Of a DNA stretch of 43,190 nt, positions 6,411 to 37,236 are shown one piece after another. Source of the DNA: an uncultured Thermoplasmata archaeon (GTDB lineage Archaea; Thermoplasmatota; Thermoplasmata; Halarchaeoplasmatales; Halarchaeoplasmataceae); contig CAYVTG010000004.1 in NCBI GenBank assembly GCA_964454575.1, positions 1 through 43,190 on the forward strand, in the 5' to 3' direction. A program made the position numbers and the translations under genes. Every line of letters starts with the position of its first letter. Position 1 is the first letter of the stretch. Under the pieces are notes generated by a model, which ran no database searches, was not told the DNA's origin, and saw only the letters and a list, made by a program, of their open reading frames with translations.

Positions 6411-7657
6411 CGAGAACCACCTCCAAAATCGATCAGTGACACTTGCCCACCTTTTTCACCACTCTTTTTTTCCTTCGGTGCTTCGATATCGTTTATCAAA
6501 GTCCACGCGTTGCTCCATAATCGTTTTTCGTAGTCGTCCTTTCTTTCACCGTCCGCCTGCTCTACCTTCAATATATCCAGCAGCTCTCCGGCAAAGCCGA
6601 CATCGATACCTTCCGGAGTACCATATTCTTCGAGTAAACCTTCCTCTATCTTTTCGGTGCTCTCTTCGTTGATCTTGATCCTTTCCAGATTCTTCGCCGT
6701 CAGCTGCCGGTTGTTTAACAATACCGTCCCTGCTCCGTTTTCCTCCAATCTTTCCCGTACAGCACTGAAGTCTATATTGTTCGGCTCTCCTTCGGTGAGC
6801 TCACCGTGTATCTTTAGCAAGAATATATCACTATCTATCGGTCCCTCGCTGAGCTCTAGCAGAACCTCATCGAGCTCGCTTGCCTTCATCCCGTCGGCAT
6901 CTATATCCTTCCGCTGGATACTGCATACGTCTAGCTGTACGTATTCCGGAACCCAGTCGTCGACGATAAAGAATCCCCTGTGTTCCTCTTTTTCCAGGTC
7001 CGTATATGAAGAACCGAATGTCGCCCCGGGATAAGTCACGTGGACACCATCTTTATCATGCTCCAACCGTCGGTGTATATGCCCGCCGGCATAGTATCTG
7101 TATCCTTCCGGTAGTACGGAAATAGGCACAGTAGCAGATTCGTGGATATCGGCGGGCTTCATCTCGGCAACCGGCGTATGGAACACAAATATAGCATCTC
7201 CTTCCGGCTCTTGGAAATCCAGCTCTCGATAGTAACTGGCATCCATACGATTCTTCCTGCCGCTCAACCCGGCTATGTATATACCGGAGGAATCCTTCAC
7301 ATGTTCCAGAGAGCCCTCCTCGTGGAGATATTGTACCACCTTTTTGAATACCTCCGCGCTCTCTAGTACATCGATCAAAGAGGCCTTGGCGATGTTGAAA
7401 TCGTGTGAGCCGTAGACCGCGTAGATTCTGATACCCTGGTTCCTGGCATCTATCATGGCCTTTACGGCCCGGTTAACAACGTCCATATCCGGGTGTGGAT
7501 TGTGGAATAAGTCTCCGGCGATGATGATCAATTCTACTTCCCTATCGATGCATATCCGTATGGCCTCTTCGAAGGCCTTCAGATTGTATTCTCTCAATTC
7601 AGGACTGCGCCCGAAAGCACCTAGATGACAGTCTGCCATATGTGCGAACTTTACCAT
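6407..7657 (-). CDS. mre11: Mre11 nuclease
   Basis: Phosphoesterase motifs ADCHLG, AGDLFH, GSHD, FHT, GGHIH; overlaps the rad50 start. Confidence 0.95.
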
Positions 7658-16964: not shown

Positions 16965-17345
16965 CTAATCCTCTAGGGAAATAGCGTTTATAACACCATC
17001 TTTACCGGGCTTCGATGTTATCTTGGCTCTACCCCGGGGCGTGTCGATTATGGCACCCTTTGTGAGGATATTCCTCTGAACGTAGTTAGGATTAGCCGGA
17101 TTCTCTACGACGTTTTGGATCATAACACGGACTACCTTTCCATCGGACGTTGAAAGATTAGCATGTTCCGCACCCATGACCTTTGTCTTTTGTCTTCCAC
17201 CTCTTCCTCTCATAGACTTATTTTTATGTGTGGCTATCACCGCAGGATGAAAATCTGTTCCTAGCTCGAACTTCCTCTTTTTGCGGTAGTGTCTGCGTCG
17301 TCCGCCGGTTATCTTTCTTCTTGATTTTGCTTGCCACATCGTCAT
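16965..17345 (-). CDS. rps8e: 30S ribosomal protein S8e
   Basis: SRRKITGG, RKKRKFELG, RGRGG, NPAN..YV.RN.LTKGAII.T, PG.DGVINA. Confidence 0.96.
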   Translation of the reverse strand: MTMWQAKSRRKITGGRRRHYRKKRKFELGTDFHPAVIATHKNKSMRGRGGRQKTKVMGAEHANLSTSDGKVVRVMIQNVVENPANPNYVQRNILTKGAIIDTPRGRAKITSKPGKDGVINAISLED

Positions 17346-24870: not shown

Positions 24871-25410
24871 ATGCTAAATGTATACAGATGTTGGATATGT
24901 GGGGAAACCTACTTGGGCGAAGAGCCCCCGTCGGACTGCCCCTTTTGCGGTGCCGACAGAAAATTCCTGAAGCCCGGCGAAGAGTACGAATACCCGGACG
25001 TAGAGTTGACCGAAGTTTCCAAGAAAAATTTAGAAGCCGCATTGGAATTGGAAGTAGATAACGCAACTTTCTATTTCTGTGCATACAACAGATCGGACGA
25101 TCCGAAAAAAGAAGGCATGTTTAAGAGGTTGGCTAAAGTAGAGTCCGAGCACGCCGAAGCGATATGCATGTTCCTTGATATCGATGAACCTAAGATAAAC
25201 AAGAACTCGGAAGACTGCTCGCACCACTTCCCGGACCTTTTAGAAGACGCTAAAACTAGAGAGACGGGAGCGATAAATCACTACAAAAAGTTCGCTGCAG
25301 AAGCCGAAGAACCACGTGTTAAGGAATTCTTCGAAGCCATCGTCGAGATCGAGACAGATCATCTTGAATTACACGCACACGAGATCGAAGAGTTGGGCGA
25401 AGAACACTAG
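24871..25410 (+). CDS. Rubredoxin-ferritin-like fusion (reverse rubrerythrin-like)
   Basis: N-terminal CWICG...CPFCG followed by two E..H diiron helix pairs (ESEH, ETDH). Confidence 0.85.
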   Translation: MLNVYRCWICGETYLGEEPPSDCPFCGADRKFLKPGEEYEYPDVELTEVSKKNLEAALELEVDNATFYFCAYNRSDDPKKEGMFKRLAKVESEHAEAICMFLDIDEPKINKNSEDCSHHFPDLLEDAKTRETGAINHYKKFAAEAEEPRVKEFFEAIVEIETDHLELHAHEIEELGEEH

Positions 25411-25490
25411 TTCCGAAACACAAAATTTATTTCACCCCTCTCTCTGTGGGCTGTCCGGCAGATGGTTAATTCAAACCATCTTTAGCAATC

Positions 25491-25695
25491 GCCATCGTAG
25501 CTTTCTCACAATCTAGAACGAAGATTCCAAGAAGCTAAGATGACTCACTCCGTTCGCCATCGTAGCTCAGTCGGAATTTAAACAGCAAATTCCAACAACC
25601 TACGAAGGCTCATTCCATTCGCCATCGTAGCTCACTCGGAAAAACGAACAGATTTTTCCAAGAAGCGACGATTCGTTTCACTCGCCATCGTAGCT
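25491..25695 (+). repeat. Tandem array of tRNA-Thr 5'-end duplications separated by ~52-nt structured units
   Basis: GCCATCGTAGCT starts at 25491, 25556, 25621 and 25684 (the tRNA itself); periods 65/65/63. Confidence 0.92.
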
Positions 25696-25755
25696 TAGCG
25701 GTAGAGCGGCTGGTTTGTAACCAGCAGGTCGGGGGTTCAATCCCCTCCGATGGCT
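25684..25755 (+). tRNA. tRNA-Thr(TGT)
   Basis: Acceptor GCCATCG/CGATGGC, anticodon arm GCTGG-tt TGT aa-CCAGC, T-loop TTCAATC; CCA not encoded; T-rich tract follows. Confidence 0.96.
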
Positions 25756-25765
25756 TCTTTCTTTT

Positions 25766-26069
25766 TAACCCCACTTATCTTGGTTTCTAAACAATGAGGG
25801 CATTTCATGATGAACCTTCCCCCAGTCCTTATCCTCGATATGCCTATAGTTGAAATCCAGGTCTTCTCGAGTGTCTTTGATCGAGAGAGATGAGGAATTT
25901 GTAATTCCTCTAGATCAGAAAGCCGTGGTGTATCTAGATAGATGAAGTTCATCGCAGTTCCTCCGTATAGAGACAGCCTTTTCGATAAGAATTCAGATTT
26001 CTTTATCGAATCTAACATATCACATAATCGCCTCATCTTTTCCGTTATTTCATCCGAGTAACCATTCAT
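25766..26069 (-). pseudogene. AbiEii-type nucleotidyltransferase toxin remnant (50-nt insertion, truncated)
   Basis: LYGGTAMNF...PRLS in one frame continues as EDLDFNYRHIEDKDWG in another frame after 50 nt, then hits a stop near 25766. Confidence 0.85.
25867..25916 (+). mobile_element. 50-nt structured insertion related to the tRNA-array units
   Basis: Removing it rejoins RLS|EDLD. It carries a GA-hairpin-GA motif and GAGGAATT-TGT-AATTCCTC. Confidence 0.65.
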
Positions 26070-26876
26070 TCAAACACCTCTCAGAAGATCTTCTAGATGT
26101 TTTGGTACGTAAAGTCCCCATCTTTTTTTTAATTCGCTGGAAACATCTCGATCGATGTAAACGGGTTTCCATCCAGGAGTCGGTCTTAGGGGTTTTAATT
26201 TTTCTTTTTCGATATGTTCGTAGTAAGGTGATCGATCTCGTAGCATCTCCAAAACATATCCGCACTTCAGTTCTAAAGTCTTGTTATTGTAGCTTGAAAG
26301 TACATCCTTTATGTTCTTTAGAGAGATACCTTTGAGGTTCGCAAGACTTTTGAGACATTCCTCCCAACCTCCGCAGAGATCGGTTCTGGAAAGGCAATCG
26401 ACGAAGGTTCTTTCAAGATCCGTTACTTTCAAACTTGTGTTTTTGTATTCGATGGACGTGATGTGCCCGAGGTGGTGTTTATTTACGACGGGGATGTAAC
26501 CGACCCCTTGAAAATCAAATCGTCTGAACCTATTTTTTTTCGCTACTATGATGAAGATCCTGGTGAAAGCGGAATGTGCCGAACCGTGTAATTCTAACGC
26601 GGTGTGATATCCCAGGGCATCGCATTTTTCGAGTTTGTTGCCGACTAAGTATCGGTCCGCTTGAAAATCTTCTTCCAGTTTGTCCAAAGGAATACCATAG
26701 TACAAGCCTTTCCTGACCTTCTTTAACTTCGCTTCTTTGATGAGCTTGTGTAGATATTTTCTGTAATAATATTCGTCCTCGACATCGAATACCTTTTTTG
26801 AGATATGCTTCAGGTCTTGGACGTTGACGACCTTCCTCTTCAGGACCTCTTGGTAAAACCGTTCTTTTTTGTTCAT
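26070..26876 (-). CDS. AbiEi-type antitoxin / transcriptional regulator
   Basis: N-terminal wHTH (L.KVRKGLY), YHTALELHG, VTDLERTFVDCL.R..LCGG.EE, GY.LE; directly upstream of the abiEii remnant. Confidence 0.88.
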   Translation of the reverse strand: MNKKERFYQEVLKRKVVNVQDLKHISKKVFDVEDEYYYRKYLHKLIKEAKLKKVRKGLYYGIPLDKLEEDFQADRYLVGNKLEKCDALGYHTALELHGSAHSAFTRIFIIVAKKNRFRRFDFQGVGYIPVVNKHHLGHITSIEYKNTSLKVTDLERTFVDCLSRTDLCGGWEECLKSLANLKGISLKNIKDVLSSYNNKTLELKCGYVLEMLRDRSPYYEHIEKEKLKPLRPTPGWKPVYIDRDVSSELKKRWGLYVPKHLEDLLRGV

Positions 26877-26904
26877 CTGGATCCCCTTTTGTAGATGTGA
26901 TGCA

Positions 26905-26995
26905 TTATGTTCTCTTATATTGGACATTAAAGAACATACTTACATATAAGTTTTTTGTGGTTCTGTTACGTAATGTTCTACCATATGAGACATTA
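26905..26995. promoter_or_regulatory. Two related 25-bp imperfect inverted repeats flanking the abiEi TATA box
   Basis: TTATGTTCTCTTATATTGGACATTA (26905-26929) and TAATGTTCTACCATATGAGACATTA (26971-26995), 19/25 identical; minus-strand CTTATATG lies between them. Confidence 0.65.
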
Positions 26996-29516: not shown

Positions 29517-30278
29517 ATGAGCAAAATTTACCACCTTACACCGAACGAGCAGTGCCTGATGGATATCGCCGCAGACGCGGATGTGATCGTCACCGAGGAT
29601 ATCATCCAAGCTTTACAGGACGAAATCCCTACCCAGAGTGTGAGGAATGCACTGTCGTCTCTTGCGGAAAAAGGACATATCTTCCGTGTTAAGAGAGGTA
29701 TATATCTACGCTGTGAGGAACCGGGTTCACCGGTGATAGAGGATCCGAAACAGTTGGCACTTCACATATTCGAAGGATACATCGGTTTTTCCTCTGCACT
29801 ACAACATTGGGGATTGCTTGAATACGAATCCTTCGACGTTTTCGTAGTATCCAAGAACAAAAGTGGCAGCAGAGATATCGGCGAATATGTGATACATTCA
29901 GTTTCCATGGGCGAAAAGGCTCAAGGTATGGTATTCGACAGAGGGATATACGTTTCAACGTTAGAGAAGACGATTTTCGACTGCATATACAAACCTCAGC
30001 ACGCAGGGGGCTATCCGCTCGTCGTCAGAGCCATTGCAGAATCGGATCCGGACTGGAAAAAAGTTCGTCACTGGTTCCACCTGCTGGCAAGTGATTCGCT
30101 TTTTCAGAGAGCCGGTTACCTACTCTCCATAGCGGGAAATGCACCGGGATGGTTACTGGATGATTTCAGATCTGAGTTGAAACACAGATCACGATTAGAC
30201 CCTTCAGGGAGAAACAAAGGCCGGTACATAAAAGAGTGGGAACTGATAGATAATGTGGAGGTATGGGATTTTGGTTAA
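29517..30278 (+). CDS. AbiEi-type antitoxin
   Basis: wHTH (RVKRGIY), YIGFSSAL.HWGL, STLEKTIFDC..KP.HAGG, RAGYLL. Confidence 0.88.
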   Translation: MSKIYHLTPNEQCLMDIAADADVIVTEDIIQALQDEIPTQSVRNALSSLAEKGHIFRVKRGIYLRCEEPGSPVIEDPKQLALHIFEGYIGFSSALQHWGLLEYESFDVFVVSKNKSGSRDIGEYVIHSVSMGEKAQGMVFDRGIYVSTLEKTIFDCIYKPQHAGGYPLVVRAIAESDPDWKKVRHWFHLLASDSLFQRAGYLLSIAGNAPGWLLDDFRSELKHRSRLDPSGRNKGRYIKEWELIDNVEVWDFG

Positions 30279-31050
30279 GACAGAGCGTACCATAAGGCAG
30301 ATATCCGCAAGATCAGGACTCGGTCTGAAATTCATCTCTAAGGATATGTTCCTGACAGATGTGATAAAATATCTGGAAAGCGCGCTGGATGACTCATATG
30401 TACTCAAAGGAGGTACGGCGATATCCCGTGCAGGATATCTATCCAATCCGAGATTTTCCAAGGACATAGACCTGGATCATTACGGAGAGAACGATCAACA
30501 TAAAACGGCCGATCAGCTCTTCGATATGTTGAAAGATCTCGATAACTTTTCCATAAAAAAACCGAGATTCCAGGGAGTATCCATACGGTGCGATGCTTAC
30601 TTTGAAAATCACTTTGGAGAGAAGGACAGGATCAGGGTCGAAACCACTTCTCTCGAAGGTAATCCACCGAATGAAGAAAAAGCATCTAAAACACTGCTCC
30701 AATCTCCCTTCTGTTTGGGTAAAGCAAGCCTGATACGCACATATTCCAAGGAGATACTTTTCGTTCAGAAGATCGATGCCCTGTCGGGAAGGATGGACGG
30801 TAAAGATATCTTCGATCTGGTAGGCATGTGGTCACAAGGGATCTCACCGGAGAAATTAACGAATATTGAAGATAAGAGTGCAGATGAAATTGTAGATAGA
30901 GCTTTGATCAATCTGAAGAAGATGAAATCTGACATAAACAGCATAGGTAACTCTGCGAACCATTTCATACCTAGACGGGAAAGACCCAACTGGAAGATAA
31001 TGGCGGCTGAACTTGAGACCATATTGAAAGACCTCAGGGCGCAACCATAA
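30271..31050 (+). CDS. AbiEii-type nucleotidyltransferase toxin
   Basis: LKGGTA, RFSKDIDL, K..AL..R..GKD.FDL; TTG start after GGAGGT, overlapping the abiEi stop. Confidence 0.88.
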   Translation: MVKTERTIRQISARSGLGLKFISKDMFLTDVIKYLESALDDSYVLKGGTAISRAGYLSNPRFSKDIDLDHYGENDQHKTADQLFDMLKDLDNFSIKKPRFQGVSIRCDAYFENHFGEKDRIRVETTSLEGNPPNEEKASKTLLQSPFCLGKASLIRTYSKEILFVQKIDALSGRMDGKDIFDLVGMWSQGISPEKLTNIEDKSADEIVDRALINLKKMKSDINSIGNSANHFIPRRERPNWKIMAAELETILKDLRAQP

Positions 31051-33251: not shown

Positions 33252-33382
33252 AGTGAACGAAGTGAGCTAGTGCCGTAGAAGGAGGAATCTGTGATTCCTG
33301 CGCACTACGGGGCTTTTGTGTTGCAAAACCCCCGAGTATTTGGAATTGCTACTCAATTCCGAAACACTACGGGGCTTTTGTG
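33240..33382 (-). repeat. Tandem array of tRNA-Gln 5'-end duplications separated by ~50-nt structured units
   Basis: Top-strand CACTACGGGGCT at 33240 (tRNA), 33303 and 33365; periods 63/62. Confidence 0.9.
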
Positions 33383-36932: not shown

Positions 36933-37187
36933 TACCAATTTTTCATTTTTCGAGGCCGGGATTTGTTTCACGAGCTAAGACACTTCTTAGCGAGCGGTTA
37001 GAATGTTGAACGAAGTGAGGCATTCTGAGTTGAATCCGGCCGGGGCGCCATACCGATTTTTCATTTTTCGAGGCCGGGATTTGTTTCACGAACATGAATA
37101 CGTTTTATTCATGTGAGCGCACTGAATAATGAGCGTAGCGAGTTATTGAGTACAGAAGGCTGGCCGGGGCGCCATACCAATTTTCAT
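36918..37187 (+). repeat. Tandem array of tRNA-Asp 3'-end duplications with structured variable units
   Basis: GGCCGGGGCGCCATACC at 36920, 37038 and 37162 (periods 118/124); the first two copies share ~55 nt. Confidence 0.92.
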
Positions 37188-37236
37188 CTACCTGACAGAT
37201 AAATCTCTCATTTTGGGAAATGAAGAACCAGCCTTA

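Follow-up and report, generated by a model that had tools for sequence, protein, structure and literature searches.

A 50-nt stretch inside what is left of an AbiEii gene is, with a probability of about 0.8, one copy of a miniature non-coding mobile DNA element made of two hairpins, here called E50, lodged in a gene that was already truncated. Filled and empty alleles of this insert both exist in nature.

The AbiEii locus and its insert

The window, meaning the whole stretch of DNA that was analysed (43,190 nt), is one whole contig of a metagenome-derived genome bin of 1.87 Mb in 133 contigs, with a GC content of 45% and a completeness of 94%. These are the features of the window on which the analysis draws:

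25491..25683, plus strand: three units of 63-65 nt in tandem, each combining the first ~14 nt of tRNA-Thr with a hairpin body of 49-51 nt
25684..25755, plus strand: tRNA-Thr(TGT), its 3' end 10 nt from the end of the AbiEii stub
25765..25866, minus strand: 3' part of the AbiEii remnant, EDLDFNYRHIEDKDWGKVHHEMPSLFRNQDKWG and a stop codon; beyond DWG the homology fades
25865..25886, plus strand: hairpin H1, TCTCGA-gtgtctttga-TCGAGA, containing the conserved motif CTCGAGTGTCTTTGAYCGAGAG
25867..25916, equally 25865-25914, no strand assigned: the 50-nt insert (E50), from the paralogue alignment and an empty-site contig
25892..25910, plus strand: hairpin H2, GAGGAATT-tgt-AATTCCTC, of the GGAA..TTCC type
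25917..26069, minus strand: AbiEii remnant, 5' part, 51 codons, M...GGTAMNFIYLDTPRLS; PF08843 at E 0.065, under the cut-off
26070..26927, minus strand: AbiEi antitoxin-like gene, 285 aa, apparently intact; PF09407 (AbiEi_1) at E 1.8e-5 and 25.4 bits, above the cut-off
33253..33377, minus strand: two units upstream of tRNA-Gln, of which unit 1 starts CGCAGGAATCACAGATTCCTCC

The minus-strand ORF 26069..25917 reads M...LYGGTAMNFIYLDTPRLS and begins like AbiEii (...KRLSLYGGTAMNFIYLDTPRLS), and past the 50 nt another frame (GAA GAC CTG...) reads EDLDFNYRHIEDKDWG.... The two AbiEii pieces, joined by X at the break, were aligned with 11 paralogues, out of 13 PF08843 matches in the genome. PRLS-L-DIDFNYR and PRLS-V-DIDFNYR are the readings of the two closest, and deleting exactly 50 nt restores both the frame and the spacing. 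A first-pass annotation of this DNA had claimed that deleting 25867-25916 restores PRLS-EDLDFNY, and this was borne out, the spacing being that of the closest of the 11 aligned paralogues; the alignment with homologues that it had proposed as a check gives an empty site, the paralogues having no extra sequence there. The insert separates the S codon of the RLSxDLDF motif from the E codon. The boundaries slide by 2 nt (TC, plus strand), which makes 25865-25914, 25866-25915 and 25867-25916 equivalent, and at most these 2 nt are repeated at the insert boundary, in agreement with the earlier statement that no long target duplication is present.

In its canonical orientation (plus strand) the insert runs as hairpin H1, the spacer GAGAT, hairpin H2 and the tail TAGATC. 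As single-stranded DNA, TCTCGA (25865-25870) would pair with TCGAGA (25881-25886) in H1, and GAGGAATT (25892-25899) with AATTCCTC (25903-25910) in H2. The predicted fold energy is -10.9 kcal/mol (z = -2.24), and equally good folds were obtained in 4 of 200 shuffles. The annotation had one arm pairing with the flanking gene; the first TC of the TCTCGA stem may indeed be flank, but it may equally be element. A MITE is defined by terminal inverted repeats together with a fixed target-site duplication; the ends of the insert, TCTCGAG and CTCTAGA, form an inverted repeat at 6 of 7 positions only. For the conserved end tag of REP systems, GTAG or CGTC, the window's copy has CTAG.

The proposal that the insert inactivates a toxin had to be given up. 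Even when the insert is left out, the host ORF has 84 codons, against open frames of 256-328 aa in the full paralogues, and it terminates 10 nt short of the 3' end of tRNA-Thr. With the 50 nt removed, the N-terminal nucleotidyltransferase motif of AbiEii, GGT...R(L/F)SxD(I/L)DF, is present in the stub, which matches PF08843 over profile positions 9-34 of 238 only (E 0.065, 13.6 bits against a 22.5-bit cut-off). The empty allele described below retains the same truncation, and the orthologous locus in the relative G021 has AbiEi and then an AbiEii stub only, truncated earlier. Since the gene is a stub regardless of the insert, in the empty allele and in G021 too, the insert landed in a remnant, and it is of no consequence for toxin function at this locus. 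The G021 ortholog was also considered as an empty site and was uninformative, its AbiEii being cut even earlier. The AbiEi-like gene has an ortholog in G021 (68% nucleotide identity), and a second AbiEi/AbiEii pair, intact, lies at 29517-31050. Among the 13 AbiEii (PF08843) matches in the 1.87-Mb genome, hairpin mini-elements lie in or abut three AbiEii loci.

Logan contigs from four microbial-mat runs of one study (X1-X4) were compared with positions 25400-26400; such contig data show which alleles exist, not allele frequencies. Record 22 of run X4 (186 nt) covers 25760-25864 and 25915-25995 with 0 other differences, which is a skip of 50 nt. Record 3 of X1 (534 nt, 25632-26165) has the insert with 0 differences, and so do records 8 and 12 of X2. 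X4 is a run dated three years later, and its library type, like that of the other runs, was guessed ('DNA?'); its longest contig is 89,730 nt, so a DNA assembly is probable. The earlier claim that the 50 nt are inserted DNA is thus supported by an empty-site allele with identical flanks, seen in one metagenome contig that is most likely DNA. So exact an empty site suggests either that the element arrived very recently or that it is excised precisely. The tRNA-Thr units vary between strains as well: in X3 contigs one 63-nt unit is missing and an extra one is present (window 25491-25683).

Because the genome is a 133-contig metagenome bin, one might ask whether the insert arose in assembly or as filler DNA from a single repair event. 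That is scarcely credible, given that contig sets X1 and X2 independently show the filled form with 0 differences, and that close 50-nt modules occur in other genomes, for instance in G019 (33 nt at 97% identity).

A length that is not a multiple of three, together with a frame that is restored exactly on removal, might also be expected of an intervening sequence neutralised at expression, either as an intron removed from the RNA or by a ribosome hop or frameshift, with the DNA unchanged. For the insert this is unlikely. Its AbiEii host is a stub with nothing to rescue, and the joined form was seen in an assembly that is most likely DNA (X4). The last exon codon, TCT, is unmatched near resumption, and frame 0 is free of stops. 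The hairpin begins 6 nt into the insert. A ribosome hop at AbiEii was rejected on the same comparison, as TCT faces CGA and the last 6 codons contain no match.

The hairpin family at tRNA genes and elsewhere

The annotation had matched the last hairpin to tRNA-Gln unit 1, and this stands: the degenerate 18-mer GAGGAATYTGTRATTCCT has 2 matches in the window (25892 and 33282) and 0 in 100 shuffles, and the two H2 copies differ by a paired T-A/C-G change. The start of Gln unit 1, CGCAGGAATCACAGATTCCTCC, resembles CGCAGGAAGC..., a subtype of the 50-nt insert in relatives. The bodies of the tRNA-Thr and tRNA-Gln units are 49-51 nt long, and an E50-like spacer and hairpin occur within a unit behind tRNA-Arg on contig C24. 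Kinship between the insert and the tRNA units therefore holds in part: they share a module, a size and an architecture, but not overall sequence identity, and the 12-14-nt duplications of the tRNA units are absent from the gene inserts.

Across this genome, which has 39 tRNAs, GGAAT is the commonest 5-mer of perfect 7-bp hairpin stems (64 of 1197), and 36 of 75 GGAA..TTCC hairpins lie within 600 nt of a tRNA. Extra copies of the first or last 11 nt were found within 600 nt for 15 of the 27 tRNAs examined, mostly at a spacing of ~63 or ~125 nt, and the duplicated tRNA ends are separated by hairpin bodies of ~50 nt. They are spread over the following contigs:

Contigs of this genome (G000) with duplicated tRNA ends: C2, C4, C5, C7, C14, C22, C24, C40, C70, C91, C93, C97, C113

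Three side observations concern the same surroundings. The intron-containing tRNA at C5 18550-18647 of this genome (G000) has an insert with GGTCAAAGACA, equal to 11 nt of the E50 H1 loop region, which may be chance. The loop motif GAACGAAGTGAG / GAGCGTAGCGAG (window 36933-37190 and 33253-33377) occurs in hairpins by tRNA-Asp, tRNA-Gln and several other tRNAs. One IS200 copy adjoins an intron-bearing tRNA with hairpin arrays.

The position of the AbiE remnant right against the 3' end of tRNA-Thr, in a genome with duplicated ends at 15 of 27 tRNAs and two tyrosine recombinase genes, could suggest att-site debris, left by integrase recombination at tRNA-Thr from an integrated element carrying the AbiE pair. 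We regard this as very improbable. A distance of 110 nt separates the insert from the tRNA, with which it has no sequence in common; one allele is cleanly without the insert while both flanks are unchanged; and copies of this module are found in genes of other kinds and in arrays between genes, where 0 of 21 loci have a tRNA within 1.5 kb.

The reading as a mobile element draws on relatives. No second copy of the 50-mer or of the H1 motif was found in this genome (94% complete), so no donor copy is seen; blastn-short of the insert against its own genome gave, at best, matches of 18 and 16 nt within coding sequence, which were set aside as chance. Among 44 family genomes, 14 have the H1 motif CTCGAGTGTCTTTGAYCGAGAG, at 22 places in all, against a single match for a reversed control pattern, and a DNA search of 41 genomes found the two-hairpin module in G019 (33 nt, 97% identity), G016 and G002. 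H1 is followed, 2-6 nt on, by a hairpin with paired stem changes (GGAAGC, GAGGAATT, TGGAAAAT, AGAATAA, AGGAT). There are 16 distinct H1+H2 modules with co-varying H2 stems; when 15 modules were aligned with MAFFT, the 3' arms were put out of place. Matches to the pattern CGAGAGAGATGAGGAAT (<=2 mismatches) that have no hairpin are mostly chance, in coding sequence, and were discarded.

Most family copies lie in intergenic arrays. None of the 21 module loci has a tRNA within 1.5 kb, and the 10 loci sampled have ordinary genes on their flanks; being free of tRNAs and lying between ordinary genes, the arrays are REP/BIME-like. Many family hairpins have GCAG or GTAG ahead of GGAA. The window's insert is a 46-nt core plus TAGA, and those of relatives are TA+core+TA or GA+core+TA, all 50 nt, with an opening point that differs between the window's copy and theirs by 2-4 nt. 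Boundary repeats measure 0-2 nt in 21 of 22 inserts, and the left flanks (..CTC, ..CTA, ..TCT, ..TAC and ..TGG in the mRNA sense) have no fixed word.

A sister subfamily, E54, is 54 nt long (GAACAAAACC-GAAG-GGTTTGT, then GAGGAATTT-GTCA-AAATTCC) and occurs at several places in this genome, listed here with no strand assigned:

C93 806-859 (L102): E54 in a TnpB gene, in frame; the gene matches guided_TnpB at 137.9 bits and is the only TnpB of its type
C26 about 17084-17178 (L103): E54 in an AbiEii paralogue, in frame, with TGA
C28 (G000) about 6782-6845 (L104): E54 at the 3' end of an AbiEii paralogue
C35 63-270: E54 as four tandem 54-nt units

The 18 E54 codons of the C93 TnpB are absent from 4 of 4 homologues in relatives. 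The right end of the TnpB element (C93 1201-1303) has an outer stem around GAGGAAGC and GAGGAATT hairpins, the GAGGAATT stem being the same as that of the insert, and C88 6586-6785 is a miniature composed of the two ends, left and right, of the TnpB element. Altogether the data support the insert's membership in a family of two-hairpin modules of ~45-56 nt spread through this Thermoplasmata family. The earlier suggestion that the family can enter non-tRNA targets is supported by copies in TnpB, in AbiEii paralogues and in the Zn-ribbon/Cas4-like gene of the next section.

As for an enzyme, the Y1 (IS200, PF01797) transposases of this genome belong to two identical elements, at C5 17897-18241 and C21 23955-24299, whose end hairpins (CCCCAA..TTGGGG) are unlike those of the insert. 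A RAYT/REPtron partner was rejected for this reason, these two IS200 copies being the only Y1 genes. Genes for Cas1, an IS110-type DEDD transposase or a reverse transcriptase were not found in this genome (94% complete), nor was any candidate mobilising enzyme linked to E50; the tyrosine recombinase genes number two.

Interrupted copies of a Zn-ribbon/Cas4-like gene

One multi-copy gene, found in 26 of the 44 genomes, shows a sub-threshold match to an IS1/IS1595-type Zn domain at its N-terminus and weak hints of RecB/Cas4 likeness at its C-terminus. At its codon boundary YHHL|KLN (site 134), 18 of 22 copies examined are empty, and this genome's partial copy is empty too. Exactly 50 nt are inserted there in G055, G053, G016 and G002, and also in G019 (five genomes). 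On a tree of the 22 copies the 4 filled ones are scattered, and the starred branches are compatible with a single origin. Eight copies are interrupted:

L060 (G002 C28): at least 8 junctions
L038 (G042 C4): 3 junctions
L043 (G016 C72): 3 junctions
L061 (G053 C19)
L011 (G019 C109)
L047 (G003 C43)
L055 (G014 C56)
L070 (G055 C131)

The breaks in these copies were mapped by ungapped tblastn with a best-split rule. This resolved 21 inserts at 10 sites, after residues 51, 134, 152, 163, 185, 203, 215, 247, 261 and 278, each 44-56 nt long (one is 99 nt) and with at least two hairpins. Insert lengths are 3n+1 or 3n+2 in 19 of 22, many with stops. The site-152 insert is common to six genomes, and 2 of its 15 predicted pairs show compensatory changes. 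The loop motif of the tRNA-associated hairpins (GAACGAAGTGAG / GAGCGTAGCGAG) is also found in the relatives' site-152 insert. Other genes with inserts of ~50 nt, for which the first-pass annotation had proposed a search, are this one, with at least 10 sites, TnpB and an AbiEii paralogue.

The coding blocks between the inserts are complete, and they are free of stops in 7 of the 8 copies. Family-conserved residues are retained at 87/91 to 85/85, with G014 as the exception (87/96), the values for intact copies being 0.79-0.99. Nei-Gojobori dN/dS between an interrupted copy and its nearest intact copy is 0.04-0.11, compared with 0.05-0.13 among seven intact pairs, and branch dN is not raised in the interrupted copies; many dS values are saturated, and weight is placed on the two best-conditioned pairs only (dS 0.74 and 0.84). 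With the blocks kept and dN/dS as in intact copies, either the insertions are all very recent or function is not abolished, and uniformly recent insertion is hard to reconcile with inserts that are shared and diverged. The inserts in this gene may therefore be removed or bypassed.

From this we are led to consider that E50-type elements are true intervening sequences of archaeal protein genes, tolerated through removal or skipping, a reading that we put forward tentatively and hold to be somewhat short of even odds. Tolerance could come from frequent precise DNA excision in a polyploid cell, like that of ciliate IES or the seamless excision of IS200-type elements; from RNA splicing that does not use the BHB motif; or from ribosome hopping or frameshifting. 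The clean polymorphism among the mat runs would agree with frequent precise excision at the DNA level. The AbiEii insert would then be a stray copy of an intervening-sequence system, and its polymorphism a glimpse of the DNA-level step.

The interrupted gene also bears on the account in which the insert is neutralised at expression, with at least 10 interrupted sites, complete blocks and dN/dS of 0.04-0.11 against 0.05-0.13 in its favour. A BHB intron has two 3-nt bulges with a 4-bp helix between them and both splice sites in the bulges. The pairs that this calls for (exon -6..-3 with intron n-5..n-2) are absent: a hand check found the four required pairs neither at the three allowed AbiEii boundaries nor at sites 134, 152 and 278, and a BHB intron was rejected. 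Rfam, ribozymes included, gave no match at E <= 1 for the 4 loci searched. A match between take-off and landing codons was found at site 134 only, in 4 of 5 of its copies. There CTC would be the take-off codon, CTC stands again two codons ahead of resumption, and TAG follows directly after the first CTC (G055, G053, G019), an arrangement that recalls the take-off and landing of T4 gene 60 as the available portions of the sources describe it (PMC8211752; bioRxiv 10.1101/2022.08.31.505936). Among 72 flagged sites in this genome where a hairpin cluster splits a pair of long ORFs, 0 are split by an E50/E54-type module, a weak negative that counts against neutralisation at expression; with no long housekeeping ORF split here, tolerance is not obviously general. 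One of the 72 sites has a single GGAAA hairpin (C33).

The Zn-ribbon/Cas4-like gene was itself considered as a REPtron-like partner and rejected, as an E50-like signature past the junction was present in only 2 of 22 copies scanned. Two further matches of that scan are the site-134 insert itself, and upstream hairpin arrays are present in only some copies.

Mobilisation, known systems and meaning

For the insert as a mobile element, the proposed course is a precise insertion at the DNA level with a duplication of at most 2 nt (TC). E50 would be non-autonomous and probably moved in trans by an enzyme. The same length with a shifted cut point, seen in one permuted copy, would fit a small circular and probably single-stranded intermediate of the IS200/IS605 or REP/RAYT type, which would join ..CCTCTAGATC to TCGAG... 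One mechanism may not cover both the tRNA units, with their 12-14-nt duplications, and the gene inserts.

The preferred reading of the finding is a new archaeal form of miniature hairpin mobile DNA, seen as a presence/absence polymorphism. Full-text literature searches turned up no account of elements like these in archaea, Thermoplasmata included. PATE and MITE derivatives of IS200/IS605 and TnpB (IS1341-type) elements have subterminal hairpins, precise ends and no target duplication. E50 likewise has hairpins and precise ends without target duplication, and the hairpins of the TnpB element share the insert's stem. It differs in that its hairpins are unlike those of the resident TnpA and that no conserved target tetranucleotide was seen; known PATEs, moreover, are far larger than 50 nt.

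Rickettsia palindromic elements and intragenic REPs lie in frame and are translated, whereas the lengths of 19 of 22 inserts here are 3n+1 or 3n+2 nt and many contain stops. Both, mentioned in PMC3733652, are the nearest precedents for selfish palindromes within genes, and E50 resembles them as small palindromic selfish DNA in coding genes whose products seem to survive. With REP/REPIN-RAYT systems, as far as that portion describes them (PMC3733652), the E50 family has in common that it consists of short non-coding multi-copy palindromes, found in intergenic clusters and occasionally in genes. Within the same limits of the source, stem variants with paired changes are a further likeness, and the many copies here with G[CT]AG just 5' of the stem recall the GTAG tag. 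The differences are an archaeal host, a unit that is a fixed pair of two different hairpins (~50 nt), the strong link to tRNA gene ends, and the fact that this genome yielded no RAYT gene present in single copy with these hairpins on its flanks.

Bypass elements offer a second comparison. T4 gene 60 and the mitochondrial byps are, in the available portions of PMC8211752 and bioRxiv 10.1101/2022.08.31.505936, mobile hairpin-bearing coding gaps, the gap of gene 60 being 50 nt. E50 resembles the latter in its length of 50 nt, its hairpins and its probable mobility. The Zn-ribbon/Cas4-like gene is like them in having many gaps in one gene with the coding sense preserved, but matched take-off and landing codons are absent at AbiEii and at every site but one. 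Archaeal BHB introns occur in the protein gene cbf5 according to the portion of PMC2738675 available, and in both cases a protein gene of an archaeon is interrupted by a short stretch whose length is not divisible by three (PMC2738675); the differences are that the bulge-helix-bulge geometry is absent at the mapped boundaries and that the empty form exists most likely as DNA.

E50 would rank among the smallest mobile DNA units known, one that is both present and absent in nature. The hairpin units that accumulate at tRNA genes of archaea are also able to insert into protein genes, with ends exact to the base and without leaving a footprint. Annotators should bear in mind that what is recorded as "frameshifted pseudogenes" in these lineages may instead be intact genes interrupted by 50-nt inserts. 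The wider pattern in relatives is a more interesting result than the AbiEii insert: if it holds, archaea tolerate many frame-breaking inserts within a working gene, which would amount to an intervening sequence of a new kind or to a novel system of precise excision or bypass.
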